DNA from: an uncultured Pseudomonadota bacterium
GTDB lineage: Bacteria > Oederibacteriota > Muellerivitia > Muellerivitales > Muellerivitaceae
Direction: 5' to 3'
DNA: 64,000 nt
NCBI GenBank assembly: GCA_963836235.1
Contig: CAWIIP010000002.1
Location: 1-64,000, forward strand
Shown: positions 20,973 through 34,433 of the stretch, in pieces
Numbering within the stretch: position 1 is the first letter of the stretch
Layout of the letters: each line of letters starts with the position of its first letter
The notes under the pieces: model-generated
Told to the model about the DNA's origin: nothing
Seen by the model: only the letters and a program-made list of their open reading frames with translations
The model's database searches: none
Made by a program: the position numbers and the translations under genes

Positions 20973-21725
20973 TTAATGTTCTATGCCGCGTTTCAAGCTT
21001 TGGAGATAGTCCATTTGAGTTCCCGGAATGGCGAGATTTTTCTTATCCTCCAACCAGTCGCTATAGGCGTTATCCCGCTGAAGGTAACTTTTCGAAATAT
21101 GGATCACAAAAACCTTCATCAACTCGCCCATGCTCGAGGCGATCGTGTCGTAACTCCGGTCGTAATAGAGCTGGTTTTCGTAATAGCCGGTGAGCCGGAC
21201 CAGTTCAACGAGGGTGGAGGAGCTTTCGTTGTAAGCCTCGAAATGATAGAAGCCCCGGATCATTCCATAGGAATCGCTGAAATCGTCCCCGATGCAATGG
21301 TATTCTTTTTTCGGCGGCCCATACTTCGACCGCAGGTCCCGCCGGGCGCCTTCCAATTCCTTCAACGTGAGTTCGGTCGCTTCCAGGCATAAATTCCCGC
21401 GATAAAAAACGTATGTCTTAGGATCACCTTCCGCGATTTGCGCCGAAAAACCAGGAAAGCGCGCCGGATCGTCCTTGTTCACCTCGTGGCAATCCATTAA
21501 AAGATAATCCAATAGCCGGGCTTCCATTGGATCGACATAAAAGGTCACTTTGGAATGTTTCAAGGCGCGAAATTGCGGCAATGTCGTGTTCCATTCCGTA
21601 TCCGGGGAGCCTGCAGGGACATTCAGGCCCTTGCTATCGGGTGTGTCACAATACCCCAGTCGGGCCAAGGCAACGAGAACAGTAGCCACGGCCCACAGCC
21701 GCCACTTTTTTATTTTTTTATCCAT
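20973..21725 (-). CDS. Exported hypothetical protein
   Basis: 251-codon ORF with RBS AAGGAGG and an N-terminal signal-like segment; no family recognised. Confidence 0.7.
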   Translation of the reverse strand: MDKKIKKWRLWAVATVLVALARLGYCDTPDSKGLNVPAGSPDTEWNTTLPQFRALKHSKVTFYVDPMEARLLDYLLMDCHEVNKDDPARFPGFSAQIAEGDPKTYVFYRGNLCLEATELTLKELEGARRDLRSKYGPPKKEYHCIGDDFSDSYGMIRGFYHFEAYNESSSTLVELVRLTGYYENQLYYDRSYDTIASSMGELMKVFVIHISKSYLQRDNAYSDWLEDKKNLAIPGTQMDYLQSLKRGIEH

Positions 21726-21769
21726 CCATGCCTCCTTTGAAAGGCTTTTAACAATTAAGTGATCAACCT

Positions 21770-22444
21770 TTAAAGGTCCCCGGAAATCGCGTCCTTGGCC
21801 GCTCCCCATAGCATTTGCGGATCGGCCAAGAACCGATAATCCCGGTTAAAGAAAACGAACTGGACGATCCCCTTACGGTCGATTCCATAGACCGCAGGCA
21901 CTGGAAGCGTTTCATCGGAATTACCCGTATATTCCCTTAAGTGAACTCCCATTTTTTTCAGGACATCCTCGTCCGCACGATAGGCTAAGCCAAACCGCCG
22001 GGCGATATCCATGTTCTTATCGGTAAAGAGGGTAAAATCGACGTTATCTTTTTTATAAGTTTCTAAAATTTTTGACGGCTGATCCGGCGTGACCGCCGCC
22101 ACTTGGTACCCCAATTCCGCCAAACGGGGCTCCAGTTTGGCTAAATCGCCCAATTGGGAATTCGAGTAGGGGGACCATCCTCCTTGGTAAAAAACAAGGA
22201 TGGTCGGCTTTTGGTGGATGAAAGTTTCAAAATCGACGGTTTTTCCATCCATCGTCACGAGCGCGCCATAAGCCGCTTCATCGCCCGCCGAACGGGGCTG
22301 GGTGCGTCCAGCCTTCTCCGCTACCCTTTCTTGATCCTCCCGCCACCACCACCCATCACCGTCCCGGGCGAAAGCCGTAAAGCCCGCTCCCTCCAAAATA
22401 AACAGCAATAAAAAATGGAATAAAAAAAAATTTTTCCGAATCAT
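21770..22444 (-). CDS. Exported peroxiredoxin-like (AhpC/TSA) protein with CxxC replaced by SxxS
   Basis: LVFYQGGWSPYSN in place of FYRGGWCPYCN; also A..FGLAY, LPVPAVY.ID..G.V, DYR. ATG overlaps the upstream TGA. Confidence 0.8.
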   Translation of the reverse strand: MIRKNFFLFHFLLLFILEGAGFTAFARDGDGWWWREDQERVAEKAGRTQPRSAGDEAAYGALVTMDGKTVDFETFIHQKPTILVFYQGGWSPYSNSQLGDLAKLEPRLAELGYQVAAVTPDQPSKILETYKKDNVDFTLFTDKNMDIARRFGLAYRADEDVLKKMGVHLREYTGNSDETLPVPAVYGIDRKGIVQFVFFNRDYRFLADPQMLWGAAKDAISGDL

Positions 22445-22680
22445 CGACGCCCCCGCTTCAACTTCCTTTTTCCTCTCCATTTCATGGGTCCGCAGGCCAC
22501 GGGCTTGGCCTCCAAACCTTTCATCCCCTCTTCCCGGTAGGCAGCTTTCCACCGCCGGACACTTCTTCTTTTCGCGCCAACCTCAAGGGCGACTTGGGTC
22601 AGGTTGAAGCCCTCCAACACCATCTCGATGGCCCGATGGCGGCGGCGTTCCAATTCCTTTTGACTGCCGAAAGGCCTCAT
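22441..22680 (-). mobile_element. IS630-type transposase N-terminal HTH only (remnant or domesticated)
   Basis: MRPFGSQKELERRRHRAIEMV.EG..LTQVA..VG..RRSVRRWK.AY.E.G..GL.AKP matches IS630 N-termini; no DDE domain follows. Confidence 0.7.
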
Positions 22681-22713
22681 GCCGCGACTCCAAACCGGTG
22701 AATTTAACCATCC

Positions 22714-22980
22714 CTATACACCCGAACTCCTTTGAAAAAACCCCCGGACTTCCAGGCAAGCTTCCTCGGCATCGTCGCCCTGGAAGTTGAACAGTAATTC
22801 CATTCCCCTGGCCGCCCCCAGCGAGATCAAGCCGATGATGCTCTTGGCGTTCGCGCTTCGGGGCCCGTTGTGGACAGTGACCTCGCACTTGTACCGGCTG
22901 ACTAATAGGACCAACTGGGCGGCGGACCTCAGGTGAAGGCCCAACGCGTCGGGTACAATAACCTTTTCGGCGATGATCAT
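22714..22980 (-). CDS. ptsH: HPr-family phosphocarrier protein (canonical)
   Basis: GLHLRSAA (His15/Arg17), ANAKSIIGLISLGAARG (Ser46), GDDAEEA; RBS GAGGAG. Confidence 0.88.
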   Translation of the reverse strand: MIIAEKVIVPDALGLHLRSAAQLVLLVSRYKCEVTVHNGPRSANAKSIIGLISLGAARGMELLFNFQGDDAEEACLEVRGFFQRSSGV

Positions 22981-23051
22981 TCGGCTCCTCTCTCTTCGCG
23001 CGTGGTGCGACATGATTTCAACCCGTCCCTTTTTCAGCCCACCGAGGAATG

Positions 23052-23705
23052 TTACGTTTTGGCCTCGTCCAACTTGCGGACGATAAAGAGACTAGCCGTC
23101 CCTTCCACCGCCAGTTTCACCAGCAGCCGCTTCACGTTTTTCCTTGATTCCAGCAAAGCCTTGCGCATAAACACCAATTGGTCGGTCAATTCCCTTTCCT
23201 CGCCGAAAACCTCAATAGCCCTTTCGATCAGTTTTAGCATTTCTTCCTGGAACGCGGCCTCATTTTGGAGGGTTTCCCCGAAACCGCGATCCGGGTTTTC
23301 CCCAGGCAATTCAAGGGCAACCGGGACGCCCATTCTTTCGCCTAAACCAACCCGCAGGTCCCGGTAATCCTTTTTGGCCAGGCACAAAAGACCCCAAAGG
23401 TCATCCACGGAACTTTCGTCGTCAGGCACAGCCGCCCCCGCCAGGTGCAGGACACGCTGATGCGCTATTTCCAGCATCTGGAAAAGAATAGCCGTCCGGC
23501 GAAGCTGGACTTTGCTGATGTGGGCCTTGGTGTTCAGCAATTCCTTGACCACACCGAGCATTTCCCCGCACTGTTCCAAGAGGGCGCGGTTGGTTTGCCC
23601 GTCCCGCGGGCTGGCGCTCAGCGCGTGGGCGGCCAAATCCTTCATGCCCCCCTCAAGGCGTTCGGAAGTTTCGATCATTTGGTAAATTGTGAAATAAAAA
23701 TTCAT
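23052..23705 (-). CDS. Hypothetical all-helical cytoplasmic protein
   Basis: 217 aa from ATG 23705 with RBS GGAGG; amphipathic helices; no family recognised. Confidence 0.7.
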   Translation of the reverse strand: MNFYFTIYQMIETSERLEGGMKDLAAHALSASPRDGQTNRALLEQCGEMLGVVKELLNTKAHISKVQLRRTAILFQMLEIAHQRVLHLAGAAVPDDESSVDDLWGLLCLAKKDYRDLRVGLGERMGVPVALELPGENPDRGFGETLQNEAAFQEEMLKLIERAIEVFGEERELTDQLVFMRKALLESRKNVKRLLVKLAVEGTASLFIVRKLDEAKT

Positions 23706-23757
23706 TTTTTCCTCCAATAGTTTTTTCGAGCAAACACAAAAACGGACCGGGACGGCC

Positions 23758-23940
23758 TTAATTTCGCAGATGCCCTTTGCCACCCGAATGCCGCTCAAGA
23801 CGTAGTCCGTTTTCCTTTTGATCCATTTGGAAACAATCGAAACAGTCCACAATGTGATCGGTGATTCTTTCCCAATCCTCCTCCGGCAATTTCCCGAGCA
23901 TATAATCTTTGTATTTCTTGTTCACTTCATCGCAATTCAT
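23758..23940 (-). CDS. Stand-alone zf-HC2 (ZAS anti-sigma-type zinc finger) protein
   Basis: MNC.E......DY..G.L......I.DHIVDCFDC (HxxxCxxC); RBS AAGGAGG; only 60 aa and no TM. Confidence 0.8.
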   Translation of the reverse strand: MNCDEVNKKYKDYMLGKLPEEDWERITDHIVDCFDCFQMDQKENGLRLERHSGGKGHLRN

Positions 23941-23986
23941 GGAAATCCTCCTTTTGGTGCCGACGGTTTAAAAAATCTTCCGCCCT

Positions 23987-24256
23987 TTAGTTCCCCCGGG
24001 TGATAAACCGGCCCATACTGGAATTCCGGATGGATTCTAAGGCCGCCTTTTCGTCGCTTCCCTTCAGGCTGACGACTACCCTAGATAAATCAGGACGAAT
24101 TAAAGAAACGACCTCCAGCAGTTTTTTCCCGTCGATCGTTATTTCATCGTCACGGATCTTGATATGGCAGTGAAACTTCCGGGCGATGCGCAACAAGTCG
24201 GTCAACGCCCAGGGCGGAAGCCCCGGATTTTTTTGAAGCGTAATTTTTTTGGACAT
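23987..24256 (-). CDS. Divergent HPr-like protein lacking His15 and Ser46
   Basis: MSKKITLQKNPGLPPWALTDLLRIARKFHCHIKI...IDGKKLLEVVSL...LKGSDEKAALESI: HPr pattern with GLH->GLP and KS->KK; RBS AAGGAG. Confidence 0.72.
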   Translation of the reverse strand: MSKKITLQKNPGLPPWALTDLLRIARKFHCHIKIRDDEITIDGKKLLEVVSLIRPDLSRVVVSLKGSDEKAALESIRNSSMGRFITRGN

Positions 24257-24359
24257 TTCGTCTCCTTCTCCATCGGGAATAAATAAAAAAATGGAATTTC
24301 TGGGTTTGGGCGTGCAGAAACAATCATCCAAGGGGATGATCAAAATTTCGGAGAAAATG

Positions 24360-24716
24360 TCAGATGCGTAAGGGAATTGGACCGGCGGAAGAAATATCTG
24401 CTTTCCCGAAAGCGGCAGGGACCGCCATCGCCGTCGTCCTTGAAAAGGAAACGGTTTTTGGGAAATTCGAGGACTTGCAAATATCGGACTTGGGCTTCGA
24501 GGTTTTTTCCTTGGCGTCCTGAGTCAGGCAATTAAACCCACGCAAAACCTTTCCGAACGACAGGTGGCTGTTGCGGTCAATGGACCCGTTTGAATCCGAG
24601 AAAAAAGGATTGGCATGGCCCATCAAATAGACAAACTGCCGACCCACCAAGGGAATCAGCATGGCCACCACTAAAAAAGCCATTAGGTTTTGGCGGAAGC
24701 GATTAATCCGAAACAT
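24360..24716 (-). CDS. Signal-anchored small protein ending in LRI (leader A)
   Basis: 118 aa, basic N-terminus plus hydrophobic segment, ends SSAGPIPLRI*; paralog of 27231..27593. Confidence 0.7.
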   Translation of the reverse strand: MFRINRFRQNLMAFLVVAMLIPLVGRQFVYLMGHANPFFSDSNGSIDRNSHLSFGKVLRGFNCLTQDAKEKTSKPKSDICKSSNFPKTVSFSRTTAMAVPAAFGKADISSAGPIPLRI

Positions 24717-24722
24717 ATTTTT

Positions 24723-24751
24723 AAATTACTCTCCTCATAGGTAAAGTTCAA
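24723..24751 (-). promoter_or_regulatory. Sigma70-type promoter, predicted leaderless transcript
   Basis: TTGAAC-N17-TAATTT-N6-ATG(24716). Confidence 0.55.
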
Positions 24752-24865
24752 GCCTTCCTTTCAGCGTGGGAAAATGCAAAGTAAATAAGCCCAAGAAATG
24801 GGTGGATTAATTCAATTCCAACCCTGCCTTTAATTCACTGGAAGGCCGCAATCGGCGGATCCCGG

Positions 24866-26206
24866 TCAACCCTTCGGCATATCCCTTAGCGGTTTTCCAT
24901 CCGCTTTGAAGGTTTCAACCGATCCATCCCGGAGCGTCAATTGGATTTTTAATCCCTGTCCCGATCCGGTGAACCGCACCCCTTGTACTTCGGTATCGAG
25001 GAAAATGGGCTTGGCCGACTTTTTTTCCCTATCCACTAAAAAGGCGTCACCGCTGTCCCCCACCAGCTTCACGGTGTGGCGGTTGTCATCGTTCTGGAAG
25101 ACAATCGCCCTGTCCATATCCGCTTGGGCCTGGTGATCAGGAGATTCTTGGAAGCCATTGGGCTCTTCTGGTCGACCAGTGGAGACCGACGAAAAGTTGT
25201 CCCCGGTTTGGCCGCTATCCTGGTCTTCGGACAGCCCATTATCGTAATTGGCTTGTGGGTCAGTGCCATTATCCGTTGACTGACTATTGTTGTAACCGCC
25301 GTCTCCATTAGAGGAGACATATTGCTCGTTCTCGTAAATATAGACCATGTTCGTTGCTGGATTGGGCCAATTCCAACATCCATTGTCCCAATAGTCCCAA
25401 CAGCCGTACCAGGGGTCATTCCACCAAAACAAACCGCCATAGTACTGGGTCCAAAAACAACTTCCACCGCCGTACCATCCATACCAATTGCAGCCAAAAC
25501 GGTCGCAGTAATTGCAATAGTTCCATCCACCGTAGTTATGCCAATAATAATGGCCCGGGTTGTTCTGCGCCGCACGGTTGAAACCATTGATCTGGGAACG
25601 GAAATTCCCGTTCCCGGTGATGGAGTTCATTTGGTTCCGCACAAAACCTGAATTCATCTGGTGGGGTGAGAGCGTCGAGGCGGAAAGATGCTGCCCATTG
25701 GCCCCCCGAGTAGGCATCTGCGCCGTGGAATGCCTCATACTTCCGGGAAGTGAGGACGAGCCGTTTAACCGGCCGGAAGAAAAACCCCGGCTGTTGGATG
25801 AAGTGGTGGGATGAACCGAGTCATTGAAATGATGAAGGCCCGTAGAACGGTTCCCATTAGAACGATACCCACCGTTGTTTTGGCGAAAACCGTTGTAGTT
25901 TCCATAAGCTCTGTTAAAAGAATGGTTTTGCCTGTTCCAATACCCGCCGTTGCCTTGGCGGTAATAGCCATAGGCTCGGTTGCCGCCATAATAACGGTTT
26001 CCCCCAAAACTGCGGTTGTTAGACTGGAAAGAAAAATTCCCACGTCCCCCTCCAAAGTTTCCACCCCATCCACCGCCACTACGGTCGCCGCCGCCGAAAC
26101 CGCCCCCTCCTCCGCCACGGGCACCACCGCCTCCGCCACCGTGTGAAGGTAAAGCCGAGGCTGGGAACAACAAAGCCATCGCGAAAACCGCTATTATCTT
26201 TTTCAT
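24866..26206 (-). CDS. Secreted Gly/Asn/Ser/Arg low-complexity protein with Trp/Tyr/Cys-rich domain (paralog 1)
   Basis: Signal peptide, poly-Gly, LHHFN, YYWH.YGGWNYC.Y.DRFGCNWYGW...FWTQYYG..WW, VYIYEN, and a C-terminal VKLVGDSGDAFL..KPIFL domain. Confidence 0.8.
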   Translation of the reverse strand: MKKIIAVFAMALLFPASALPSHGGGGGGARGGGGGGFGGGDRSGGGWGGNFGGGRGNFSFQSNNRSFGGNRYYGGNRAYGYYRQGNGGYWNRQNHSFNRAYGNYNGFRQNNGGYRSNGNRSTGLHHFNDSVHPTTSSNSRGFSSGRLNGSSSLPGSMRHSTAQMPTRGANGQHLSASTLSPHQMNSGFVRNQMNSITGNGNFRSQINGFNRAAQNNPGHYYWHNYGGWNYCNYCDRFGCNWYGWYGGGSCFWTQYYGGLFWWNDPWYGCWDYWDNGCWNWPNPATNMVYIYENEQYVSSNGDGGYNNSQSTDNGTDPQANYDNGLSEDQDSGQTGDNFSSVSTGRPEEPNGFQESPDHQAQADMDRAIVFQNDDNRHTVKLVGDSGDAFLVDREKKSAKPIFLDTEVQGVRFTGSGQGLKIQLTLRDGSVETFKADGKPLRDMPKG

Positions 26207-26261
26207 GTGGCACCACCTTTAAGGATTGGGCCACTCGTACCTTACGGTCTCAATCCCCCTG

Positions 26262-26297
26262 CTATTATTTAGACGTTTCCACCAGTTAAAAAAGGAC
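26262..26297 (-). promoter_or_regulatory. Putative ECF-sigma promoter (copy 1)
   Basis: Minus strand GGTCCTTTTTT...AACGTCTAAATAATAG; shared with 34489-34524. Confidence 0.45.
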
Positions 26298-26427
26298 CGT
26301 TTAAAACCTAACCAAAACTTGCCGGCATTCCAAAAAAATTTCAAACCCCTTGGCAAAGTGGGGGCGCCTAAATACGCCCCCGATTTCGCCCCAGGGACCC
26401 AGGCCCCCGGAAGAACAAATGAAATAA

Positions 26428-26649
26428 TTACTTGGTACCCGAGGCAGTAGGCGTCGCTTCGGTCGATTTATTCATTTTCTTTGTCGACTTTTTCTTTGCG
26501 TGCTTTTTGACCTTTTTGTGCCCCATCTTCTTGGTCGGCGTCGAACTGGCGCTGGCCGGGGTCAAAGAGGCTGCCGTTCCTTGAGCCATCGCCAAACTGG
26601 CGGTGGTCAAGAAAGACAAAGCCATCAATATGGCAAATAACCTTTTCAT
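26428..26649 (-). CDS. Small secreted Lys/His-rich disordered protein (Asr-like composition)
   Basis: Signal peptide with AMA cleavage site, then TPTKKMGHKKVKKHAKKKSTKK; RBS AAGGAG. Confidence 0.8.
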   Translation of the reverse strand: MKRLFAILMALSFLTTASLAMAQGTAASLTPASASSTPTKKMGHKKVKKHAKKKSTKKMNKSTEATPTASGTK

Positions 26650-26800
26650 AACTTTCTCCTTTTTCTTTTTAATATAATTAACGGCGGAGGCCCGCCCTGG
26701 GATCGGGCGGGTTCAACCTTCCTTTTTCAATTCGCCGCTTCCATTTACCCGCTTCATCAACGGGTTTGGATAAGTCTCCAAACCTGCCTTGGTGGGACCT

Positions 26801-27094
26801 TTACGCCCCGGAAACAACTCTGTCTTCCGTCGCTTCGCATTCGAAAACACCTTTGGCGAAATAACGAATAACCATCATGGCTTCATCCTCGTCCCTCCCC
26901 TTGGCGGTTATTTCCAAACGCGCTCCCTTCACCTCGTTTAAAGCAATCAATTCCAAGAATATCTTTGCGTTGGCCACCAACCTTTTCTTTCGAATGCCGA
27001 TTTGACAAACGAATTGGTTGGCGATCCTTGAAAGTTCGGCCATTTCCCACATATGCAATCCAGCCTTGATCGAGATAACAATTTTTTTGGACAT
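26801..27094 (-). CDS. Divergent HPr-like protein (His15 kept, Arg17->Trp, Ser46->Ile)
   Basis: MSKKIVISIKAGLHMWEMAELSRIANQFVCQI...ANAKIFLELIAL...LEITAKGRDEDEAM; RBS GGAGG. Confidence 0.8.
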   Translation of the reverse strand: MSKKIVISIKAGLHMWEMAELSRIANQFVCQIGIRKKRLVANAKIFLELIALNEVKGARLEITAKGRDEDEAMMVIRYFAKGVFECEATEDRVVSGA

Positions 27095-27230
27095 TGGGCT
27101 TCCTCCGGCGCTTAGTTGTTTTCATAAAATGGTTTAATCCATGGATTGAAACGACGAAAATTCTTTGGGGAAAACCCCCAAAAATATAACCGACCCCAAG
27201 GGGATGGTTACGGATGATTTGGATTAAATT

Positions 27231-27593
27231 TTAAATTCTGAGTGAAAGGGGCCAAATGGAAGATGAATCTTTCAAGAACCAGCGCGCAAAAGCATCCAAT
27301 CTCGGGGTTCGCTCCGCGATAACCGATGTTTTTAATTTCGAGATTTGGAAGAAGTTGGAATTGAATTTTCCACCTTTATTGGATATTTCCTGGGCTTGGA
27401 CATTGATTTGATGCATCAGGGTTCTACTGCCGTTGTGATGGGAACCCGAATTATTCGAAATTCCTGATTCGGGATAAAAGGGTAACGCCGCCAGTTTGAC
27501 CGCAAGCAATTGCTTTCCGGCAAAGGAAAAGAGCGTGGCCGCGATCAAACCGATGAACAAGGAGCGGTGAATCGATCTCAATAGTTTTAACAT
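27231..27593 (-). CDS. Signal-anchored small protein ending in LRI (leader B)
   Basis: 120 aa; aligns with leader A (G[RK]Q, A.PF[FY].[DE]S, SH, D.SS..P..LRI*). Confidence 0.7.
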   Translation of the reverse strand: MLKLLRSIHRSLFIGLIAATLFSFAGKQLLAVKLAALPFYPESGISNNSGSHHNGSRTLMHQINVQAQEISNKGGKFNSNFFQISKLKTSVIAERTPRLDAFARWFLKDSSSIWPLSLRI

Positions 27594-27599
27594 GCCTTT

Positions 27600-27628
27600 A
27601 CGCTAGCCCTTTCATCAAGCAACGTCAA
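27600..27628 (-). promoter_or_regulatory. Sigma70-type promoter, predicted leaderless transcript
   Basis: TTGACG-N17-TAGCGT-N6-ATG(27593), the same geometry as at leader A. Confidence 0.6.
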
Positions 27629-27847
27629 GGTCCCTTGAATGAGTACGAAGCCTGGAATTTAATGGAATTTCGTCATAACCCCCGGTTAAAAAAGATGGCT
27701 GTTTTAATTAAACCATAGCCATTCAAAACCCTTTTGGAAATATTCGCAAAAACGAAAAATATCTCCCGTTTTTCTTTTGGGCCCGGAACTCCAATAGGCG
27801 CATCAAGTACCAACCGATATCGGGCCATACCGGGATGGAGTCATATC

Positions 27848-29236
27848 CTAGGGCATAGCCTCCACTGTGCCGCCGTTTAACAAATATTGGCTTCCGGCGG
27901 CTCTCAATAAGCGGGTCTTGGCCTCGGCCGATTGGATATCCAAGTTGACCATATCCTTCAAGGCCTGCTGAAGGTCTGAAAGCGGCCCAAGAAAGGACAA
28001 ATACCTTTGTTTGGCCAGGAGCGCCGCTTTCGCGGTCTTCTCCTGTTCTTCCACCAGCACTTTCAGTTCCTCCGTGGAGGCTTCCACTTCTTCCCCGTAT
28101 TTGATGTTCAAATCATCCACCGTTAATTGGTCCTGCGCGGCTTCCGACGTGCGGGCCAGGGCTTCGGCCCGGGCGCCCTTTTCCTCCGCGTCAATCCGAA
28201 ATCCCTCAAAAAGCGGGAAACTGACGCCGACAAAAACCGAATAATCCTGGGCTTGTTCCAGCCGGGTGTCGCTCAAATAGCCGGCGCTTCCCGCCACTTC
28301 CAAAACCGGCAGGTTTTCAGCTGAGTACGCAGCCGCGGTTTCATTGGCGGATTTGGTTTCGAATTCCGCCTGGGTGACCAGGGGGCTTTTCCCCGGCGCC
28401 GTCAGGCCCAGGCTGGTTTCAGGCAAGTCGGATGGGGCAGTACAGGAAAAGGACCGGGGGTCCATTCCCGTCAAAAGGGCCAATCGTTGAAGGCCCGCCT
28501 GGTATTGGCGGGCGAAGTCATCCGCCCGCAGTGAGGCGTCCGCCAGTTGGTCCTCGATCAAAAGGCCCTGCACTTCCGAATACTGTCCGTTTCTCACGAA
28601 CCGTTTGACGGTGTCCCGGATGCCCGTCAATTCGTCTTCCAATTTTTTCCAGGCGTCCCGGTCACCCCGCAGGCGAGAAGTCTCCAGGTAGGCGTTCAGG
28701 ACCTGCTGGTCCGCCAGTTCGGTCTCGAATTTGGTCCTTTCCCGACTGGCGTCATAAGCGTAATGGGCCGATGAGGATTGATGCCAAACCGACAAATCCA
28801 CCAAATCCCACTTGGCGTAGGCGCCCGCCGCCGGTCCCTTGCGGTAGGGAGAAGCCACCATTCCGGGAAAACTGTCCAAACCGGAAGTCCCAAACCCGGA
28901 GGAAGAGCCCGGAAACCCGCTGCTTTCCACCGCGTCCAAACCCAAGGAGGGATAAAATCCAGAATCCGCCTGCCGGGAAAATTCGCGTGATTCTTCCTCG
29001 CGGGAAGCCGCAGCCTTGACCAGGGGACTGTGTTTTTCCCCTAAACGCAAAGCCTCGCTCAGGGATAGCTCTTTCGGTGGCGTATCCTGGGCGTAAACCG
29101 GCCCCAAGAGGGTGACTAAAAACAAAAACCCCATGAGAAAAATTGTTTTTTTCGGCTTGAAAGGCAGGTTCCCCAGCCCCCACTCGCCATACCGGCCTTT
29201 TTCCGTCCCGAATAATGCCTTTGGAATATTTTTCAT
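27848..29236 (-). CDS. TolC-family outer membrane efflux protein
   Basis: LSLSEALRLG..HSPLVKAA, A.SGFYPSL, VGVSFPLFEGFR, A..RY; translationally coupled to the RND gene. Confidence 0.88.
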   Translation of the reverse strand: MKNIPKALFGTEKGRYGEWGLGNLPFKPKKTIFLMGFLFLVTLLGPVYAQDTPPKELSLSEALRLGEKHSPLVKAAASREEESREFSRQADSGFYPSLGLDAVESSGFPGSSSGFGTSGLDSFPGMVASPYRKGPAAGAYAKWDLVDLSVWHQSSSAHYAYDASRERTKFETELADQQVLNAYLETSRLRGDRDAWKKLEDELTGIRDTVKRFVRNGQYSEVQGLLIEDQLADASLRADDFARQYQAGLQRLALLTGMDPRSFSCTAPSDLPETSLGLTAPGKSPLVTQAEFETKSANETAAAYSAENLPVLEVAGSAGYLSDTRLEQAQDYSVFVGVSFPLFEGFRIDAEEKGARAEALARTSEAAQDQLTVDDLNIKYGEEVEASTEELKVLVEEQEKTAKAALLAKQRYLSFLGPLSDLQQALKDMVNLDIQSAEAKTRLLRAAGSQYLLNGGTVEAMP

Positions 29237-32200
29237 TTTCCCTCCTCCCGATAATAGGCGCTTTGGGGATCCAGTGGATCCAGTGAAGCCGTATAGGTCG
29301 GCTTGTTCCGGTGAACCAGGGCGTAAATGATCGGCATGATCAGCAGGGTTGTCACCGTGGACCCAAAGAGCCCCCCGATCACCGCCCGGGCCAAAGGCGC
29401 CGTCTGCTGGCCGCTATCGCTTAAACCCAAAGCCATGGGGATCATGCCGACGATCATCGCAATGGCCGTCATCAACACGGGCCGCAAACGGCTTTGCGCC
29501 CCGTACACCGCCGATTCCCAGGAATGTTTCCCTGACCGTCTCGTTAAATCCGCAAAGGTCACTAAGAGGATCGAGTTTGCCACCGATACCCCGACCGACA
29601 TGATGGTGCCCATGAAGGATTCAATATTGATGGTGGATCCGCTGAAATAGAGGGCGATCAAGGCCCCCGAAAGAACCGCGGGCACGTTGGAAATAACGAT
29701 CAAGGCGATGGGAAACGACTCGAAGCTTCCCGCCAAAAGCAGCAGGATGACCACGACGGCGAAGCCCAGCCCCGCGGAAAGGCCTGTTGTCATTTCCTGG
29801 AGGGTCGCGATTTGGCCGCGCACCCAAACCCGGACCCCCTTGGGAAGCGTCGCCTGGATGGGCTCCAATATTTTGTCGATTCGTTCCGCGGCGTGGCCCA
29901 GGTCCAGGCCATATAAGTTGGCGGTGACGGTCGCCATGCGGGCCAGGTTGTAACGGTCATACTCGGCCACCTCGGTACCCGGCTGCACTTGGGCGAAAGC
30001 CGAGAGTGGAATGGCCCCCGTATTGACGGGAATCGGCACCTTTTTCAAATCCTCGATGGATTTGATGTCATTGGAGGGAACTTCCACTTGAACCTGGTAA
30101 TTCACGCCGTCCTTGGGGTCTTCCCAATAATTGGGAAGGGTGAAGCGGCTGGAAGAAGTGACCGGAACAAGGGCCCTTCCGACATCGGTGACATGCACGC
30201 CCCTTAACCCGGCTTTTTCCCGGTCGACGTTCACGTTAAGGGTCGGGTAATCCCATGGCTGTCCGTATTGCAGGTCCCGGATGGCCGGTAGTTTCGAGAG
30301 GGCCTCTTTGATTTCTTCCGCCACGGCGCGGTCCTTATTCAGGTTCTGGCCGTTGACGTCCACGTCGATAAGCGTCGGGGACCCGGCGCTCATGACCTTG
30401 TCAATGAGGCCGCTGGCCTCGAAGGAGACCGACACATCGGGCAGTTCTTTTTGAAAAACGGACCTTAGCTTTTCCTTCAACGCGGCCGTCGAAACCTTGG
30501 AATCCTTCTTGAAAGCCACGTCCAAAACGGCTTCCTGCGGCCCGGAACTCCAGAGGAAGATAGTATTGATGGCATATTGGGTGGGCTGGGTACCGACATA
30601 ACCCAGGGTCGTATCCACGCTGTCCGGTCCCGCCGTTTGCTTGATCAGGTCGATCACTTTCAGGAGAATTTGTTCGGTTTTGTCGACATAGGTTCCGGTT
30701 GGGGCGCGGACCCGAAGCTGAAGCTCGTGGCTTTCAACCCTCGGGAAGATTTCCCGCCCGATATGGGTCCCCAGGAACCCGATGATCAGGATCGTTCCTA
30801 AAGCGTAGGCCGAGAGGAAAAACGGACGATGGTTGTAAATGAACTCAAGCATTTTACCGTGGACCTTTTTCATGATATCTAGGGCCGTTTCCCGGCCATG
30901 AACCTGGGGATGTTCCTTTTTCAGCAGCCATGTGGCGAGGATCGGAACCAGGGTCATGGAGAGAAAAAAGGCCCAAATGATGGAGAAGCCAACCGAAAGG
31001 GTGAGGGGCACGAACAGGGCCTTGGACATTCCTCCCATGAAAAAGGCCGGAATGAACACGGCCAAGATACAAAGCATGGTGAGGAAGGCCGGGTTGAATA
31101 TTTCGCTGGTCCCGTTAATGGCCGCGGTGGCAAGCGGTTCCCCCTTGCCCAAGCGCACATGGATGTTCTCGATGGTGATGGTGCTTTCGTCCACCAAAAT
31201 GCCGATGGCCAGGGCCAAACCGCCCAGGGTCATGATGTTAATGGTCTGCCCAGCGACCTTCAAGCTGAGGATGGCGCCCATCAAGGCCAGGGGTATGTTG
31301 ATCACGACGATCAGGGCGCTTCGCCAATCTTGGAGGAACAGAAGCACCATGAGCCCCGTCAAGAGGGCGCCCATGACCCCCTCGAAGGAAAGGGACTTGA
31401 TGGAATCCTTGACCACGCCCGATTGGTCGAATTCAAAACTGACCTTGATGTCGTCCGGCAGGACGTCCTGGAAAAGCTTCATGTTATTTTTGATCTCGTT
31501 GACGACGGTGAGGGTGGAGGAGTCGGAACGCTTGATCACCGGAAGATAAATGGTTCGATGGCCGTTGACGAGGGCGTAGCCCACCTGGATGTCGGTGGAA
31601 TCCTTTACGACACCGATGTCGCCGACAAAAACCGTGGGATAGGTCCCCAGACGGATGGGCACCTTCAATAAATCGTCGATATTTTCGACAATGGAATTTA
31701 GGGGAACCGCGGGATATTGGTCCCCAATCCGAATCTTCCCCGATGGCTCGATCTGGTTGGCCTTGGCCAGGGCTTCCACTACATCCTCGGGCGATAGGTT
31801 GTACTGTTGAAGTTTTTTCGGATCAACTTCGATGACAATGGCCCGTGGACTGGAACCGAAGGAGTCCGAAACCAGGAGCCCAGGCAGGGTGGCCACGAGG
31901 GGGCGCACATAGTTAAGGGCATAATCCTCGATATCCCCCAGGCTCCGGGCGGGGCTGGAAAAAACCAGGTCTCCCACCGGAAGGTTGCCGCTATCAAAGC
32001 GGAGGATGAGGGGCGGAAGGGTTCCCGGCGGCATGTTTTTCAACGCCCGGGTCGAACGAGATACGACTTCCCCCATCGCTGCGGACATGTCCGTGTCCGG
32101 GTGGAACAGAAGCTTCAAAAGGGTGACTTCACCGATACTCTTGGACTCAATATGCTCGATTCCGTTGACGTAGGAAAACTGTTTTTCAAAGTTGTAGGCG

Positions 32201-32460
32201 ATAAAGCTTTCCATTTGTTTCGGATCCATCCCACCATAAGGTTCCACCACAAAAATACTGGGTGTTCCCAGGCTTGGAAAAATATCGAACTGCATATGAA
32301 ACAAAGAGGTGACAGCCCCCAACGCGATGGCGATCGAGAGCACCACCATCGTGATAGGCCTGCGCATGGCTAATTGGACCATTCCCACCCGAAATATCTG
32401 TTGGAGAACGGGGCTTTGAGTTTTAATTTTTTTACTAGTTTTCAGTCGCGGGTAAGTCAT
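29233..32460 (-). CDS. RND efflux permease (AcrB/CusA superfamily)
   Basis: 1075 aa; RRPITMVV, DIFP, LGGLALAIGILVDES, GVSVANSILLV, RLRPVLMT, APLARAVIGGL. Confidence 0.95.
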   Translation of the reverse strand: MTYPRLKTSKKIKTQSPVLQQIFRVGMVQLAMRRPITMVVLSIAIALGAVTSLFHMQFDIFPSLGTPSIFVVEPYGGMDPKQMESFIAYNFEKQFSYVNGIEHIESKSIGEVTLLKLLFHPDTDMSAAMGEVVSRSTRALKNMPPGTLPPLILRFDSGNLPVGDLVFSSPARSLGDIEDYALNYVRPLVATLPGLLVSDSFGSSPRAIVIEVDPKKLQQYNLSPEDVVEALAKANQIEPSGKIRIGDQYPAVPLNSIVENIDDLLKVPIRLGTYPTVFVGDIGVVKDSTDIQVGYALVNGHRTIYLPVIKRSDSSTLTVVNEIKNNMKLFQDVLPDDIKVSFEFDQSGVVKDSIKSLSFEGVMGALLTGLMVLLFLQDWRSALIVVINIPLALMGAILSLKVAGQTINIMTLGGLALAIGILVDESTITIENIHVRLGKGEPLATAAINGTSEIFNPAFLTMLCILAVFIPAFFMGGMSKALFVPLTLSVGFSIIWAFFLSMTLVPILATWLLKKEHPQVHGRETALDIMKKVHGKMLEFIYNHRPFFLSAYALGTILIIGFLGTHIGREIFPRVESHELQLRVRAPTGTYVDKTEQILLKVIDLIKQTAGPDSVDTTLGYVGTQPTQYAINTIFLWSSGPQEAVLDVAFKKDSKVSTAALKEKLRSVFQKELPDVSVSFEASGLIDKVMSAGSPTLIDVDVNGQNLNKDRAVAEEIKEALSKLPAIRDLQYGQPWDYPTLNVNVDREKAGLRGVHVTDVGRALVPVTSSSRFTLPNYWEDPKDGVNYQVQVEVPSNDIKSIEDLKKVPIPVNTGAIPLSAFAQVQPGTEVAEYDRYNLARMATVTANLYGLDLGHAAERIDKILEPIQATLPKGVRVWVRGQIATLQEMTTGLSAGLGFAVVVILLLLAGSFESFPIALIVISNVPAVLSGALIALYFSGSTINIESFMGTIMSVGVSVANSILLVTFADLTRRSGKHSWESAVYGAQSRLRPVLMTAIAMIVGMIPMALGLSDSGQQTAPLARAVIGGLFGSTVTTLLIMPIIYALVHRNKPTYTASLDPLDPQSAYYREEGK

Positions 32461-32606
32461 TGGGATCCTCCGAAATCTCGGCCGCGCCTTGACCGGTCAA
32501 TAGGCGTGATGGCGCACTTTTCCCCATCCGGATGGGTTGGAACCGGTGGCGAAAGGCCAGCGGCACCCCCAACCTTATCAGGGAGAACTATTTTCACGAG
32601 ATTCCT

Positions 32607-32954
32607 TTAAATGCGAAGGACGACCGTACGGAGGGAAGGCACGGCGTAAACAGCTTTGGGGGTTTGGCCCCAAGCCCCAAAAAAGGGCGTTAATTCAGCC
32701 AGATCAATATAAGAACGCAAGGCCATCACCGGCACGGCCTGTTGTTTGTCTTCCCGATTAAAGGAACAGCGAAGGGTAGCGTGGGTGACCGCGAAAGGTG
32801 ACTTTTCTTCCAAGCGGTTAGTGGAAGAGGAGCTGCTTTGGACGGGTTCCCAAGAAGTCGGTACCAGCCGGTTGACCAAGCTGGGCCTCAAGGAAAAAAG
32901 AAGGACGCTCAAAACCAGTAACAGCCTGGTGGATATTTTAAGGACTTCCCGCAT
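32607..32954 (-). CDS. Signal-anchored small protein ending in LRI (leader C)
   Basis: 115 aa, hydrophobic N-terminus, ends PSLRTVVLRI*; directly upstream of the RND gene. Confidence 0.68.
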   Translation of the reverse strand: MREVLKISTRLLLVLSVLLFSLRPSLVNRLVPTSWEPVQSSSSSTNRLEEKSPFAVTHATLRCSFNREDKQQAVPVMALRSYIDLAELTPFFGAWGQTPKAVYAVPSLRTVVLRI

Positions 32955-33089
32955 GTTCTACTTCCCGCATGAGTGGACTTCTAAAATCGAGCGAAATTAT
33001 GGAACCGTCCCGGCCCCTTTTCAACCCCTATCCGAAATATCCCATCCCATTAGAGCGAAAGTGGCCAAAAAGGCTTGCGCCGGGCGCTT

Positions 33090-34433
33090 TTAAGTCTGGT
33101 CCCCTTCCACGTCCACTGATTGCCCGGTTTTCGCGGGGGCCTTTTCATTGAGTTGTTTGCCCTGAGCGTCGAATTTCTCATAGGACCCGTCGTTCAGGAT
33201 TAATTTAATTTCCATGGCCCCTTTGCTGTTCTTAGAAAACTTCACGTCCTTGACGTCGCTTTCCAGGAAAAGAGGCTTAAAGGAGTTTTTCGCCGAATCA
33301 TAAAGAAAGGCGTCGCCCTCTCCCCCGACAATCTTCACCATACGCGTTTTGTCTTGGCTGGGGAATTCGACGATGTCCTTGGACAGGTTTGAATTCTCTT
33401 CCATGTTGGATGACCCGGCCACATTGCCGTTCGTCGGAGGTTGGTTATAACTATTCCCGCCCGCGTTCGCGTCGGCCTGGTCGGTAGGCGCATAGTTGCC
33501 ATTTTCATAAATGTAAACCGTGTTCGTTCCCGGATCCTGCCAATACCACTCGTTACCCCACCAATAGCACCAACGGGCTCCCCAGGAATCGTACCACCAC
33601 CAATTATCTCCATAATATTGGGTCCAAAAGAAAGAATCACCCCAGCACCAGCCAAACCAGTTACAACCCCAGCGATCGAAATAGTGGCAATAGTTCCAGC
33701 CACCCCAAGAATGCCAATAGTAATTGTTCCGGAGGACATCGGAGCGGTTAAGGGATGCGATCCTACCTGAGAAAGCAGTGCCGCGGGAAATGGAGGCCAT
33801 ATGACTTGTCACCAGGGATGAATTCATCCGGCTGGGAGAAACCAGGGAAGCTGAAAAAGCCTTGCCCGACGGTCCCGTGCTTGGAAGCTTTACTACTGAG
33901 TGTTGAAGAGAATGCGGAAGCAAGGAACTATGGCTCAGCGGACGAGGAGAACCAGAAACATAGGAATGGGTAAAAGCTCCCGTTGAAGTGTTGAAGTGAT
34001 GAAGATTTGTTGAATTGGAATGGAAGTTAGCGCCGTTCGAGCCATGCGCGCCATAGGAACGGTTGAAATGACGGACTTGGCCGTATCCGTACGATCCATA
34101 AGTACCCCGTTGGTAATAGCCGTTGCCCCCCGAACGGAAATTTCCCCCGTTGGAACGGGAAGAATTGGAATAAGCGTGGTTATTGTTGTTGGACGAATGA
34201 TCCGAAGAATCGAAAGAACCGGCGTTTGACCCGGAAGAACTGTCGCCCCCACCGCGATCACTCCCGCCACTGCCACCTCGGTCATCACCACCGCTCCAAC
34301 CACCGCCTCCACCTCCACGGTCTCCCCCGCCGCTCCAGCCGCCTCCCCCGCCGCCAGCCCCCGCATCGCGAGCCAAAATTGCTCCGGCCGGAAGGGATAA
34401 TAGGATTGCCAATAACCAGGTTATTTTCTTCAT
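33090..34433 (-). CDS. Secreted Gly/Ser/Asn low-complexity protein with Trp/Tyr/Cys-rich domain (paralog 2)
   Basis: Same architecture and motifs as 24866..26206 (LHHFN, YYWHSWGGWNYCHYFDRWGCNWFGW, FWTQYYG, VYIYEN, VKIVGGEGDAFL..KPLFL). Confidence 0.8.
   Translation of the reverse strand: MKKITWLLAILLSLPAGAILARDAGAGGGGGGWSGGGDRGGGGGGWSGGDDRGGSGGSDRGGGDSSSGSNAGSFDSSDHSSNNNNHAYSNSSRSNGGNFRSGGNGYYQRGTYGSYGYGQVRHFNRSYGAHGSNGANFHSNSTNLHHFNTSTGAFTHSYVSGSPRPLSHSSLLPHSLQHSVVKLPSTGPSGKAFSASLVSPSRMNSSLVTSHMASISRGTAFSGRIASLNRSDVLRNNYYWHSWGGWNYCHYFDRWGCNWFGWCWGDSFFWTQYYGDNWWWYDSWGARWCYWWGNEWYWQDPGTNTVYIYENGNYAPTDQADANAGGNSYNQPPTNGNVAGSSNMEENSNLSKDIVEFPSQDKTRMVKIVGGEGDAFLYDSAKNSFKPLFLESDVKDVKFSKNSKGAMEIKLILNDGSYEKFDAQGKQLNEKAPAKTGQSVDVEGDQT

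Follow-up and report, generated by a model that had tools for sequence, protein, structure and literature searches.

What do small exported proteins that end in the same three residues do at the head of different genes? The question is raised by a block of 16 minus-strand open reading frames (ORFs), all co-oriented, at positions 20973..34433 of the window, a 64,000-nucleotide stretch from the genome of a soil bacterium of an uncultured phylum. The existence, order and orientation of the ORFs are as an earlier note on this DNA had given them; its interpretation, an undescribed regulon that couples leader-peptide translation to HPr-fold signalling and export, is partly supported by the present analysis. 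In order of transcription, the parts are:

33090..34433, minus strand: Gly-rich secreted protein 2, 447 aa; ORF with a signal peptide
32607..32954, minus strand: LRI-C, 115 aa, putative exported leader protein; ends VVLRI-TAA, RND-TolC downstream
32461..32606, minus strand: structured leader C, 146 nt; 9-bp helix in the MFE structure
29233..32460, minus strand: RND inner-membrane permease, 1075 aa; PF00873 ACR_tran, E 2e-190
27848..29236, minus strand: TolC-like outer-membrane factor, 462 aa; PF02321 OEP, E 2e-18
27231..27593, minus strand: LRI-B, 120 aa, putative exported leader protein; ends LSLRI-TAA
27095..27230, minus strand: leader B, 136 nt; two hairpins, one terminator-like
26801..27094, minus strand: HPr-like B, 97 aa; PF00381, E 7e-14
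26428..26649, minus strand: Lys-rich secreted peptide, 73 aa; ORF
24866..26206, minus strand: Gly-rich secreted protein 1, 446 aa; ORF, paralogous to Gly-rich 2
24360..24716, minus strand: LRI-A, 118 aa, putative exported leader protein; ends PIPLRI-TGA
24257..24359, minus strand: leader A, 103 nt; post-stop:SD pairing, two enclosed hairpins
23987..24256, minus strand: HPr-like A, 89 aa; PF00381, E 5e-8
23758..23940, minus strand: stand-alone ZAS-type zinc-finger protein, 60 aa; weak zf-HC2, Cys3, His29, Cys33, Cys36
23052..23705, minus strand: conserved helical protein, 217 aa; homologues, AF2 model
22714..23013, minus strand: canonical-looking HPr; PF00381, E 2e-21
22441..22680, minus strand: stand-alone IS630-type HTH protein, 79 aa; HTH_23, E 3e-10
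21770..22444, minus strand: exported AhpC/TSA-fold protein; PF00578 AhpC-TSA, E 2e-19
20973..21725, minus strand: exported protein of the '278-aa family'; neighbourhood in relatives

Family assignment of the 16 block proteins against Pfam and NCBIfam left both Gly-rich proteins, all three LRI proteins, the helical protein and the 278-aa protein without a match. Gly-rich 1 and Gly-rich 2 share 40% identity (E 2e-74). The earlier note had described a Gly-rich/LRI/cargo unit repeated three times; the complete order occurs twice, and the LRI-B unit is without a Gly-rich gene. Of the paralogous promoters suggested there, what was recovered is a ~30-nt motif common to the upstream regions of Gly-rich 1, Gly-rich 2 and LRI-B, with two strict matches genome-wide; a scan for the sigma-70 consensus was at chance level (8 observed vs 9.1 expected). 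The equivalent hairpins are found as similar structures 3' of LRI-A and LRI-B. PTS EI and HPr kinase are missing from the block, as had been said, and lie, as does a housekeeping HPr, on contig C5 of the same genome. Two further absences were borne out, with no Sigma70 domain among the 16 block proteins and no HlyD-family gene (RND adaptor) in the block.

LRI-A, LRI-B and LRI-C share just 14–19% mutual identity, with the LRI C-terminus in all three. This divergence, together with the block's HTH fragment of transposase type and its seemingly inactive enzymes, would suit a junkyard of duplicated fragments, or chance ORFs lying over an RNA element. Against such a view, open frames of constant length (104–123 aa, interquartile range 108–119) recur in one family, probably candidate division FCPU426, where 26 of 30 other genomes have them, as against 0 of 68 other genomes from the same phylum. 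Of the 561 pairs compared, nine reach 50% identity or more, and dN/dS was 0.17–0.40, i.e., below 0.41, in all nine; the same-genus orthologue of LRI-A is 74% identical, with a dN/dS of 0.22. Synteny is conserved across genera, the order LRI, HPr-like, zf-HC2 as well as Gly-rich, RND-TolC and 278-aa-family genes recurring around LRI genes, and an Rfam search gave no match. Both the neighbourhood comparison and the dN/dS analysis that the earlier note had proposed thus came out in favor of genuine genes, and the neutral evolution it had named as refuting its view was not seen. The dN/dS values and the presence in 26 of 30 related genomes refute the junkyard or chance-ORF reading, which we consider vanishingly improbable.

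The LRI proteins are a new family of ~116 residues, in which a hydrophobic export segment at the N-terminus is followed by a variable middle part and a C-terminal Leu-Arg-Ile, with TGA or TAA as the stop. The most hydrophobic 13-mer starts at a median of residue 10 (90 of 90 clusters), with a median Kyte-Doolittle value of 2.44 and a minimum of 1.85 across the 90 clusters, and the spacer from signal to tail has a median of 93 residues (interquartile range 88–96, minimum 54). The LRI tail is found in 89 of 90 family clusters: Leu at −3 in 90, Arg at −2 in 89 and Ile at −1 in 90. The tail consensus is roughly S-[PS]-P-[RK]-x-x-[LI]-[VIP]-L-R-I, with S-[PS]-P at −11 to −9; Pro is frequent at −9 and −10 alone and does not occur in the last three positions. 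Among 37,283 stop-to-stop frames of at least 50 aa in the genome, only 24 end in LRI, and five of these 24 belong to the LRI family, which is more than chance would give.

The nucleotides that encode this end are also biased. In a tally of 34 LRI ends, the stop codon was TGA in 26, TAA in 8 and TAG in none, compared with 36%, 49% and 15% genome-wide, and all of these stops are readable by RF2. The Arg codon is AGA in 21/34 (7% genome-wide), and Leu is never encoded by CTG or TTG, which together make up 48% of Leu codons genome-wide. Synonymous codons do vary at LRI, four being used for Leu and six for Arg, and selection therefore acts on the peptide. The codon and stop biases point to selection on termination and decoding, and they could partly stem from an unrecognised RNA or DNA constraint.

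A further feature lies immediately downstream. In 25 of 33 leaders, the post-stop stretch pairs with the Shine-Dalgarno (SD) core of the next gene at P ≥ 0.5, in a helix that begins 1–5 nt past the LRI stop. Between the 20 nt after the stop and the 20 nt that lead up to the next start, the mean duplex energy in the 33 leaders was −12.3 kcal/mol vs −6.5 kcal/mol in shuffles (p ≤ 0.05 in 24/33), with the energy minimum at offset −5 to 0. Duplexes of −12 kcal/mol or lower occur in 21/33 LRI leaders and in 85/1129 ordinary gene junctions of the same genome. The helix is also found by RNAalifold. In a covariance-model alignment, 92% of helix cells pair (40–58% in slid controls) and 12 of 15 helix pairs show two-sided changes, with 0 of 500 shuffles as good, although the alignment was fitted to the structure and its copies are related, such that the shuffle figures are not probabilities. 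A covarying anti-SD:SD helix at this position is the anatomy that the leader-peptide idea of the earlier note calls for. The pairing is absent in 8/33 leaders, among them that of LRI-B, strictly also that of LRI-C, and those of most copies of the subtype preceding HPr-like genes (L015, L017, L026, L027, L034).

Within the window, LRI-A alone has the canonical switch. In leader A (MFE −24.5 kcal/mol, z −2.9), the post-stop stretch CAUUUUCUCC pairs with GGAGAAGGAG, the SD region of HPr-like A, at a probability of 0.80; the duplex alone (−10.1 kcal/mol) is not significant vs shuffles of this CU-rich stretch. Leader C has a 9-bp helix between positions +2 to +10 after the LRI-C stop, GGAAUCUCG, and CGAGAUUUC, whose end lies 3 nt 5' of the RND Shine-Dalgarno site. 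Its duplex energy of −12.0 kcal/mol is equalled in 17 of 1000 shuffles, and for pairing between the SD core and the post-stop stretch the probability is just 0.04. Leader B has no post-stop anti-SD (P = 0.25 for SD with post-stop), its SD being paired elsewhere with P = 0.82.

The explanation we favor, at a rough probability of 0.55, is that the products of the LRI genes are exported and act as regulatory leader (sensor) peptides. We infer that the ribosome would pause once the LRI stop codon is in the A site, covering ~10 post-stop bases, which in most family members are the anti-SD strand of the long-range helix. A paused ribosome would leave the SD of the next gene free and the cargo would be translated; fast termination would allow the helix to re-form and turn the cargo off. 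The length of the pause would be set by the exported, variable part, which we take to be the sensor.

A possible but clearly less probable explanation is plain translational coupling, with LRI proteins as ordinary accessory proteins of the periplasm or membrane, e.g., CzcI-like metal binders, and without a programmed pause. The helix would merely tie cargo translation to LRI translation, and the tail would serve the mature protein as a functional or sorting motif. A helix that starts at the stop is like classic coupling, and purifying selection over the whole ORF suggests a possible separate function for the mature LRI protein. At least five Cys are found in 26 of the 90 clusters, and in 24 of these 26 a CxxC near the signal fits a metal-binding mature protein. 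CzcI, a CutF-like protein that lacks the Pro motif, is regarded in the cited source as a regulator that senses metal (PMC9973294). Coupling leaves unexplained, however, the invariance of the last three residues in 89/90 clusters amid a mean column identity of just 28%, the lack of TAG, the use of the rare AGA in 21/34 and the avoidance of G-ending Leu codons; moreover, the LRI-to-cargo gaps, 80–150 nt with enclosed hairpins, exceed typical coupling junctions. A stop-adjacent helix equally serves plain translational coupling, which we counted against pausing, as we did the leaders without the post-stop pairing and the fact that Ile, Arg and Leu are not known to cause stalling.

The tail could instead be read by a protein. 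Recognition of such tails by PDZ domains is known from the biology of DegS and Prc, and if L-R-I-COOH were the ligand of a PDZ domain or tail-specific protease, LRI proteins would report envelope stress by signalling to the ZAS/HPr-like module once exposed or cleaved. The tail does lie at the extreme C-terminus of an exported protein, and a ZAS-type zinc finger is clustered with LRI in at least 8 loci. We nevertheless consider this unlikely: (i) the Pfam/NCBIfam scan found no PDZ protease gene in the block; (ii) the ZAS protein lacks a membrane segment; (iii) most LRI subtypes are without a nearby ZAS gene; and (iv) neither the codon and stop biases nor the position of the anti-SD at the stop is accounted for.

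Leader (sensor) peptides of the kind we favor have precedents in CutF/CruR (DUF2946) and in Sec/YidC monitoring substrates, which corrects the earlier note, where the block was not recognised as a described system. CutF of Rhodobacter capsulatus and CruR of Bordetella pertussis are placed in the DUF2946/CutF-like family, which includes CzcI (bioRxiv 10.1101/2025.02.05.636593; PMC9973294). As far as these accounts describe them, they are like LRI proteins in size (~100–120 aa), Sec signal and conserved C-terminal stalling-type motif; the exported part has a Cys/His metal site, the gene lies directly before metal-homeostasis genes, mostly OEP/RND, and an mRNA stem-loop covers the next gene's ribosome-binding site, with a counterpart in the 25/33 LRI leaders described above. 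For CutF, translation in cis is needed, whereas the mature protein is undetectable or dispensable in trans. The Cys-rich LRI subtype shares this metal-gene context, and its preferred neighbors are those given for CutF-like DUF2946 leaders in the source cited (PMC9973294). Neither PF11162 nor hhalign revealed a sequence relation to DUF2946/CutF: none of five LRI proteins was matched by PF11162 at E ≤ 10, its matches in 41 genomes fell at other loci and at no LRI locus, and when LRI was aligned by hhalign with DUF2946-like proteins from the same lineage, the probability was 3.6%. CutF-like proteins end in a Pro repeat or RAPP, whereas the LRI tail is [VIP]-L-R-I-stop; a separate DUF2946-like gene in the same genome ends in GRAPPSILL. 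Also unlike CutF, 64/90 LRI clusters have fewer than five Cys and head non-metal cargo.

The search for Sec/YidC monitoring substrates by Fujiwara et al. used, as outlined in that report, four criteria: a uORF of secA, secDF or yidC, an N-terminal signal or TM segment, a conserved C-terminus and a spacer of >30 aa (bioRxiv 10.1101/2023.09.02.556018). The LRI family has the last three. From the same outline, monitoring substrates are like LRI in that RNA structure masks the downstream SD and some motifs abut the stop, and NSP-stop, NAP-stop and DGMK-stop are known arrest motifs that require the stop codon (bioRxiv 10.1101/2023.09.02.556018). In contrast, the genes next to LRI are HPr-like, RND, OEP, YtkA-like or membrane/LysM genes and not secA, secDF or yidC; the LRI family was thus out of reach of the published screen. 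The LRI motif is also unrelated to the monitoring-substrate motifs, and there are up to six LRI paralogues per genome, each with different cargo. TnaC is a short, cytoplasmic, ligand-dependent leader that stalls at termination and acts through Rho; the proposed pause with the stop codon in the A site and the use of RF2-readable stops only are TnaC-like, whereas LRI proteins are exported and ~116 aa long. By analogy, the LRI system appears to resemble CutF/CruR and the monitoring substrates; homology was not detected.

All three PTS-HPr proteins of the block exceed the Pfam cut-off. In the alignment, HPr-like A has Pro for His15 and Lys for Ser46 and so is not a phosphocarrier; HPr-like B keeps His15, with Trp for Arg17 and Ile for Ser46, in line with the non-catalytic versions noted earlier. 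The HPr at 22714..23013 has a GLHLR motif and keeps His15 and Ser46. E. coli HPr binds the regulators Rsd and MtlR, according to the sources cited (PMC8509676, PMC5320558), and by analogy an HPr-fold protein beside an anti-sigma-type protein is a candidate binding regulator. Unlike in E. coli HPr, His15 is missing in 8/9 aligned HPr-like proteins directly downstream of LRI, and no block protein matches the Rsd or MtlR family. The 60-aa protein shares the zinc motif of ZAS anti-sigma factors (HxxxCxxC plus an upstream Cys), with C3, H29, C33 and C36 invariant in 9/9 homologues and no sigma factor encoded alongside; zf-HC2 (Pfam) is below cut-off for the window protein and above it in L015, L019, L027 and L038. 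The helical protein has 44 homologues, none of which bears a name, and its residues 60–210 are modeled as a ferritin/Dps-like four-helix bundle (AF2 pLDDT 79; VIA Z 16.3 over 133 residues; no Foldseek match at E ≤ 1e-3).

Gly-rich 2 consists of a signal peptide, a Gly-rich region, a Trp/Cys-rich region and a C-terminal domain, and its homologues adjoin LRI genes in relatives; Gly-rich 1 has a 59% identical relative in L042. Homologues of the IS630-type HTH protein adjoin LRI genes in L015 and L026. The Lys-rich peptide matches Asr weakly (E 7e-4, below cut-off) and has weak homologues in L019, L020 and L034. The AhpC/TSA-fold protein, with a homologue in L042/L046, contains WSPYS, presumably at the position of the expected Cys pair, with Ser instead. 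Relatives of the RND permease in candidate division FCPU426 records are 76–86% identical, and the TolC-like gene start overlaps the RND stop by 4 nt. Compared with tripartite RND efflux, the block has permease and OEP; in relatives the 278-aa family lies between LRI and RND, the place expected for the membrane-fusion protein (window protein: AF2 pLDDT 73, no Foldseek match).

Across the family, LRI subtype matches cargo, which comprises metal-efflux operons (Cys-rich LRI), RND-TolC pumps, HPr-like plus zinc-finger genes, and membrane/LysM genes. Of eight Cys-rich LRIs among 34, five head OEP + HMBD-MFP (+RND) operons and two head YtkA/FixH-like genes; none of the three window proteins is Cys-rich. 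Copies of the LRI-C subtype stand before RND, or before the 278-aa family plus RND, in L019, L037, L043 and L045–L048. If the regulatory reading is right, LRI-A would gate HPr-like A, probably along with the ZAS and helical genes that follow, LRI-C would gate the RND-TolC pump, and LRI-B, without a post-stop anti-SD, may work through its terminator-like hairpin. The cue for the Cys/Met/His-rich subtype that heads metal-efflux operons would be metal binding, and for the other subtypes it could be export status or another periplasmic signal.

All 16 co-oriented minus-strand ORFs described in the earlier note are present between positions 20973 and 34433. Searches against Pfam and NCBIfam identified an RND permease (PF00873, E = 2e-190), a TolC-like factor, an IS630-type HTH protein, an AhpC/TSA-fold protein, a weakly matching zf-HC2 protein, and three HPr-family proteins, each above the cut-off. 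The Gly-rich proteins, the helical protein, the last exported protein, and the three LRI proteins (exported proteins of about 116 residues ending in Leu-Arg-Ile; LRI-A, LRI-B and LRI-C) had no match in these collections. The Gly-rich pair shares 40% identity, and the three LRI proteins, with mutual identities of only 14–19%, have the LRI end in common. The block had been read as three repeats of a Gly-rich gene, an LRI gene and cargo; two full units are present, but the third has no Gly-rich gene. Several members recur in relatives, in which loci carry L-numbers:

20973–21725, minus strand: exported protein of the 278-aa family, found between LRI and RND in relatives (L019:5084–5836; L037:6972–7688; L034:14902–15615)
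21770–22444, minus strand: exported AhpC/TSA-fold protein with both active-site Cys replaced by Ser (WSPYS); also L042:1397–2071
22441–22680, minus strand: stand-alone IS630-type HTH protein (79–126 aa) beside LRI genes, with no transposase body; also L015:3979–4236 and L026:6913–7293
23052–23705, minus strand: helical protein
23758–23940, minus strand: ZAS protein (zf-HC2)

The claimed absence of PTS enzyme I (EI) and HPr kinase is true of the block but not of the genome, which encodes both on another contig. Together with a housekeeping HPr they make up a PTS regulatory set at G000:C5:112554–121593. Genome-wide there are seven HPr-family matches, including the three in the block. The proposed paralogous promoters were borne out in part: a motif of ~30 nt, TTTTAAyNGG...ACGTCTAAA on the coding strand, is located ~60–70 nt upstream of the start codons of Gly-rich 1 and Gly-rich 2, with a looser version ahead of LRI-B (26259–26294, 34486–34518 and 27667–27694), but generic scans for sigma-70 promoters and for terminators were at the level of shuffles. 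In its strict form the motif occurs in the whole genome at the two Gly-rich sites only; it may serve them as a dedicated promoter or operator.

The LRI proteins are a real, conserved, lineage-specific family with five paralogues in this genome. With a profile of these five, open frames of 113–121 aa turned up in 15 of 24 genomes belonging to the same taxonomic family, whereas 16 genomes from outside it had none. A second profile, built from the 34 copies examined with flanking DNA, gave 76 matches in total: it was positive in 26 of 30 same-family genomes (1–6 matches each) and negative in all 68 genomes tested from the phylum's 22 other families. All nine pairs with at least 50% identity gave dN/dS values of 0.17–0.40, indicating purifying selection; the LRI ORFs are therefore translated and constrained. 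Both the occurrence across same-family genomes and these ratios refute the reading of the block as a junkyard of fragments, or of the LRI genes as chance ORFs, to which we give almost no credence. Non-neutral evolution of the small ORFs and co-occurrence of the members in other genomes had been named beforehand as checks, and both held. In a relative, the locus L019 (G012:C7:168000–187999) packs four LRI units into 20 kb, together with two zf-HC2 genes, two HPr+AHSA1 pairs, and genes for Gly-rich, Lys-rich, 278-aa-family, RND and TolC proteins; the block is therefore conserved across genera. The L019 locus is a larger version of the block in the window.

Searching 1.84 billion cluster representatives with the LRI profile returned 93 proteins, comprising 90 family members and 3 long unrelated proteins; the few named members are annotated 'hypothetical protein'. 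The 90 clusters have a median length of 116.5 aa. All 90 carry a strongly hydrophobic segment that begins near residue 10, and its distance to the C-terminus is tightly held (median 93 residues, interquartile range 88–96). The tail follows the consensus S-[PS]-P-[RKAQ]-[SG]-[PFS]-[LI]-[VIP]-L-R-I, and the C-terminal LRI is present in 89 of the 90 clusters, with LKI in the remaining one.

Codon choice at this end is biased. Among the 34 copies, which are related and hence not independent trials, Leu is encoded by TTA, CTC, CTA or CTT, whereas CTG and TTG, together 48% of the Leu codons in the genome, are never used; six codons occur for Arg, with AGA in 21/34 (7% genome-wide); and Ile is ATC or ATT. 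The stops in these related copies are TGA in 26, TAA in 8 and TAG in 0, compared with 36%, 49% and 15% genome-wide for TGA, TAA and TAG. Given the synonymous variation, the conserved entity is the peptide. The rare-Arg-codon bias and the RF2-readable stops point to selection on decoding or termination at the LRI end; in 2002, Hayes, Bose and Sauer reportedly found that E. coli ribosomes stall at rare Arg codons beside stops. The invariant end could instead be a PDZ or protease-recognition tail, but such a tail would leave both the biased codon and stop usage and the position of the RNA helix described next unexplained, and we regard it as improbable.

The LRI stop is followed directly by CU-rich sequence that can pair with the Shine-Dalgarno (SD) region of the next gene, 80–150 nt downstream. 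The flanks vary with compensation between copies, as in CCUUUCG/CGAAAGG, CCCUUUUGAG/CUCAAAAGG, UCACUCCUUU/AAAGGAGUGA, and AUCUCCUGA/UCAGGAGAU. We scored 33 of the 34 leaders, leaving out L017:7664–8017, which has no SD-bearing start within 260 nt. When the 20 nt that follow the stop are paired with the 20 nt that precede the next start, the mean duplex energy is −12.3 kcal/mol, compared with −6.5 kcal/mol for shuffles (p ≤ 0.05 in 24/33). The energy profile has its minimum at an offset of −5 to 0, and the median rank of the cognate SD among all SDs is 4th of 33. Energies of −12 kcal/mol or lower occur in 21/33 LRI leaders versus 85/1129 (7.5%) ordinary junctions of the same genome scored in the same way. 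For 25/33 leaders, pairing between the SD core and the post-stop stretch has P ≥ 0.5 in the thermodynamic ensemble. RNAalifold recovered the helix, enclosing two inner hairpins, from 13 leaders of one subtype. The helix also covaries: in a covariance-model alignment of 17 distinct leaders, which is fitted to the model itself, 92% of cells are paired, and both-sided changes are seen in 12 of the 15 base pairs, including all 8 outer-helix pairs; these values were matched by 0/500 shuffles, with slid controls pairing at 40–58%. Covariance model R1 has a single match in the window's own genome, the leader of its own subtype, and Rfam returned only two chance-level matches in 20000–36000 at E ≤ 5.

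The helices start 1–5 nt past the stop and finish by about +15. By toeprint geometry, this span falls within the footprint of a terminating ribosome. In the window, the LRI-A leader has the switch (P = 0.80); that of LRI-C forms a 9-bp helix between +2 to +10 and bases just 5′ of the RND SD, with the SD core outside; and that of LRI-B has a terminator-like hairpin in place of a post-stop anti-SD. The feature is weakest in the subtype preceding HPr-like genes, being absent in L015, L017, L026, L027 and L034. Plain translational coupling, with the mature LRI protein itself functional, would account for the helix and for constraint along the whole ORF, but it leaves the invariant last three residues and the codon and stop biases unexplained, and we consider it rather unlikely.

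The cargo matches the LRI subtype. Cys-rich copies (8/34) precede OEP plus a heavy-metal-binding MFP (+RND) in 5/8, a YtkA/FixH-like gene in 2/8 and an unknown gene in 1/8. The 'RPVVV' subtype (13/34) is followed by genes for a small membrane protein and a LysM-like protein or, in one genus, by HPr and an AHSA1-like gene. An HPr-family gene is directly downstream in 10/34 copies, usually followed by zf-HC2 and then helical genes. LRI-C-like copies (3/34) lie ahead of RND-TolC, with a 278-aa homologue intervening in two. The closest relatives of the RND gene are 76–86% identical, and 5 of the best 8 are in 'candidate division FCPU426 bacterium' MAG records, which makes this uncultured soil and peat phylum the most likely origin of the window. 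In FCPU426 records, some of which may duplicate genomes of other loci counted, the order LRI, (278-aa family), RND, TolC occurs in 5/8 and LRI, HPr, zf in 2. Among RND loci from other phyla, 0/7 have an LRI gene within 4 kb. In several relatives (L046, L047, L050) the TolC gene is preceded by a tandem pair of RND permease genes; the window has one (29233–32460).

In relatives' operons the 278-aa family occupies the position expected for a membrane-fusion adaptor, and no HlyD-family gene occurs in the RND-TolC operons with this family. Its AF2 model is an α+β fold (pLDDT 73), with weak matches including LpqN and DcrB. Its identification as a divergent adaptor was unsupported, as Foldseek against the PDB returned nothing at E ≤ 1e-3. 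Conservation of the IS630-type HTH in three genomes fits a domesticated regulator better than IS debris. The Ser-type AhpC/TSA protein is conserved beside TolC and Gly-rich genes in another MAG. A relatives search with Gly-rich 1 gave one locus only, and the Gly-rich C-terminal part scored at best 0.85 (no name) in Protein Atlas, with DUF6515 and RcnB leads at ≤0.80.

The HPr-fold proteins differ at their key residues: His15 is Pro in HPr-like A, HPr-like B retains the His and has lost Arg17 and Ser46, and the third HPr appears canonical. The ZAS protein has a full zinc motif (C3, H29, C33 and C36 invariant in 9/9 homologues), with no sigma factor near its gene. The conserved helical protein, with 44 homologues lacking an assigned name, is modelled as a ferritin/Dps-like bundle with a VIA wide-search Z of 16.3, a value that helical bundles can reach from arrangement alone; it has no conserved ExxH di-iron motif, Foldseek against the PDB gave nothing at E ≤ 1e-3, and its best Protein Atlas score was 0.85 (no name), with an MtlR lead at 0.78. 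The predicted complex of the helical, HPr-like A and ZAS proteins scored 0.00, which we count neither for nor against. In E. coli, HPr is reported to bind Rsd, an anti-sigma factor, and MtlR, a repressor (PMC8509676, PMC5320558); by analogy, an HPr-fold partner-switch is no more than a lead. The LRI family itself can be set against described systems.

To our knowledge, known exported arrest peptides target the secretion machinery or copper/metal genes, and nearly all depend on Pro-containing motifs. The nearest described systems are the CutF/CruR (DUF2946) metal leaders, which combine a Sec signal and a Cys/His site with a Pro-rich stalling motif at the C-terminus and a stem-loop shielding the next RBS, with OEP/RND as commonest neighbours (bioRxiv 10.1101/2025.02.05.636593; PMC9973294). 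The LRI family resembles them in overall anatomy, but five or more Cys occur in 26 of the 90 clusters only, and the tail differs. Homology to DUF2946 was rejected: there is no PF11162 match, and when hhalign compared LRI with DUF2946-like proteins from the same lineage, the probability was 3.6%. The genome also has a DUF2946-like gene of its own, whose product ends in GRAPPSILL, and the two families therefore coexist. Leaders of this type, with HHH...CxxC and a C-terminal GRAPP, occur in the window's own genome and at least six relatives and are candidate classic CutF/RAPP-type leaders:

L123:1423–1713 (G000 contig C5, about 215372–215662): DUF2946-like leader, ~96 aa; also L121, L122 and L124–L128

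Like the Sec/YidC monitoring substrates, the LRI proteins have a signal, a conserved C-terminus and a spacer, but they are not located upstream of sec or yidC genes. A 30,000-genome screen, which covered only regions upstream of secA, secDF and yidC (bioRxiv 10.1101/2023.09.02.556018), could thus not have found them; the same study gives precedents for stop-codon-dependent arrest motifs (NSP-stop, NAP-stop, DGMK-stop). A literature search found no LRI-type leader, nor 'LRI' together with 'arrest peptide', although the Fujiwara motif tables and CutF-like cluster lists might include related sequences; in the FCPU426 literature, the system was absent among the matches listed. The LRI family is best filed with the exported regulatory leader peptides; its motif (LRI-stop) and its cargo classes are new, and there are several paralogues per genome.

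We put a probability of roughly 55% on the reading that the LRI proteins act as leader (sensor) peptides that are exported, and that a pause at the LRI stop unmasks translation of the next gene. A ribosome held at this stop would keep the anti-SD strand unpaired, allowing the next gene to be translated, and the helix would re-form upon release. Tuning of the pause would fall to the variable exported part, by way of metal binding in the Cys-rich subtype. We infer such a pause, a cue for it, and a role for the HPr-like/ZAS/helical module. A wider reading is tentative: the paralogues might be diversified trans-envelope nascent-chain sensors, each presenting its own exported domain in the periplasm before its tail has left the ribosome, such that a ligand or stress would tune the pause and turn on the matched response, be it efflux of metals or of drug-type compounds, cell-wall genes, or an HPr-fold/ZAS module relaying to transcription.

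The key claim, a programmed LRI-stop pause tuned from outside the cytoplasm, is what would make the family important. If true, LRI would be the first such system beyond metal homeostasis and Sec/YidC control, and the first with several paralogues per genome. It would add a Pro-free motif at a stop codon and a natural paralogue series whose variable exported parts track cargo, and would tie nascent-chain sensing directly to RND efflux pumps and to HPr-fold and anti-sigma-type regulators. Its invariance (89/90 clusters) makes the motif an easy target for in vitro stalling assays, and the family offers a first functional handle on how genes are regulated in an uncultured soil and peat phylum.
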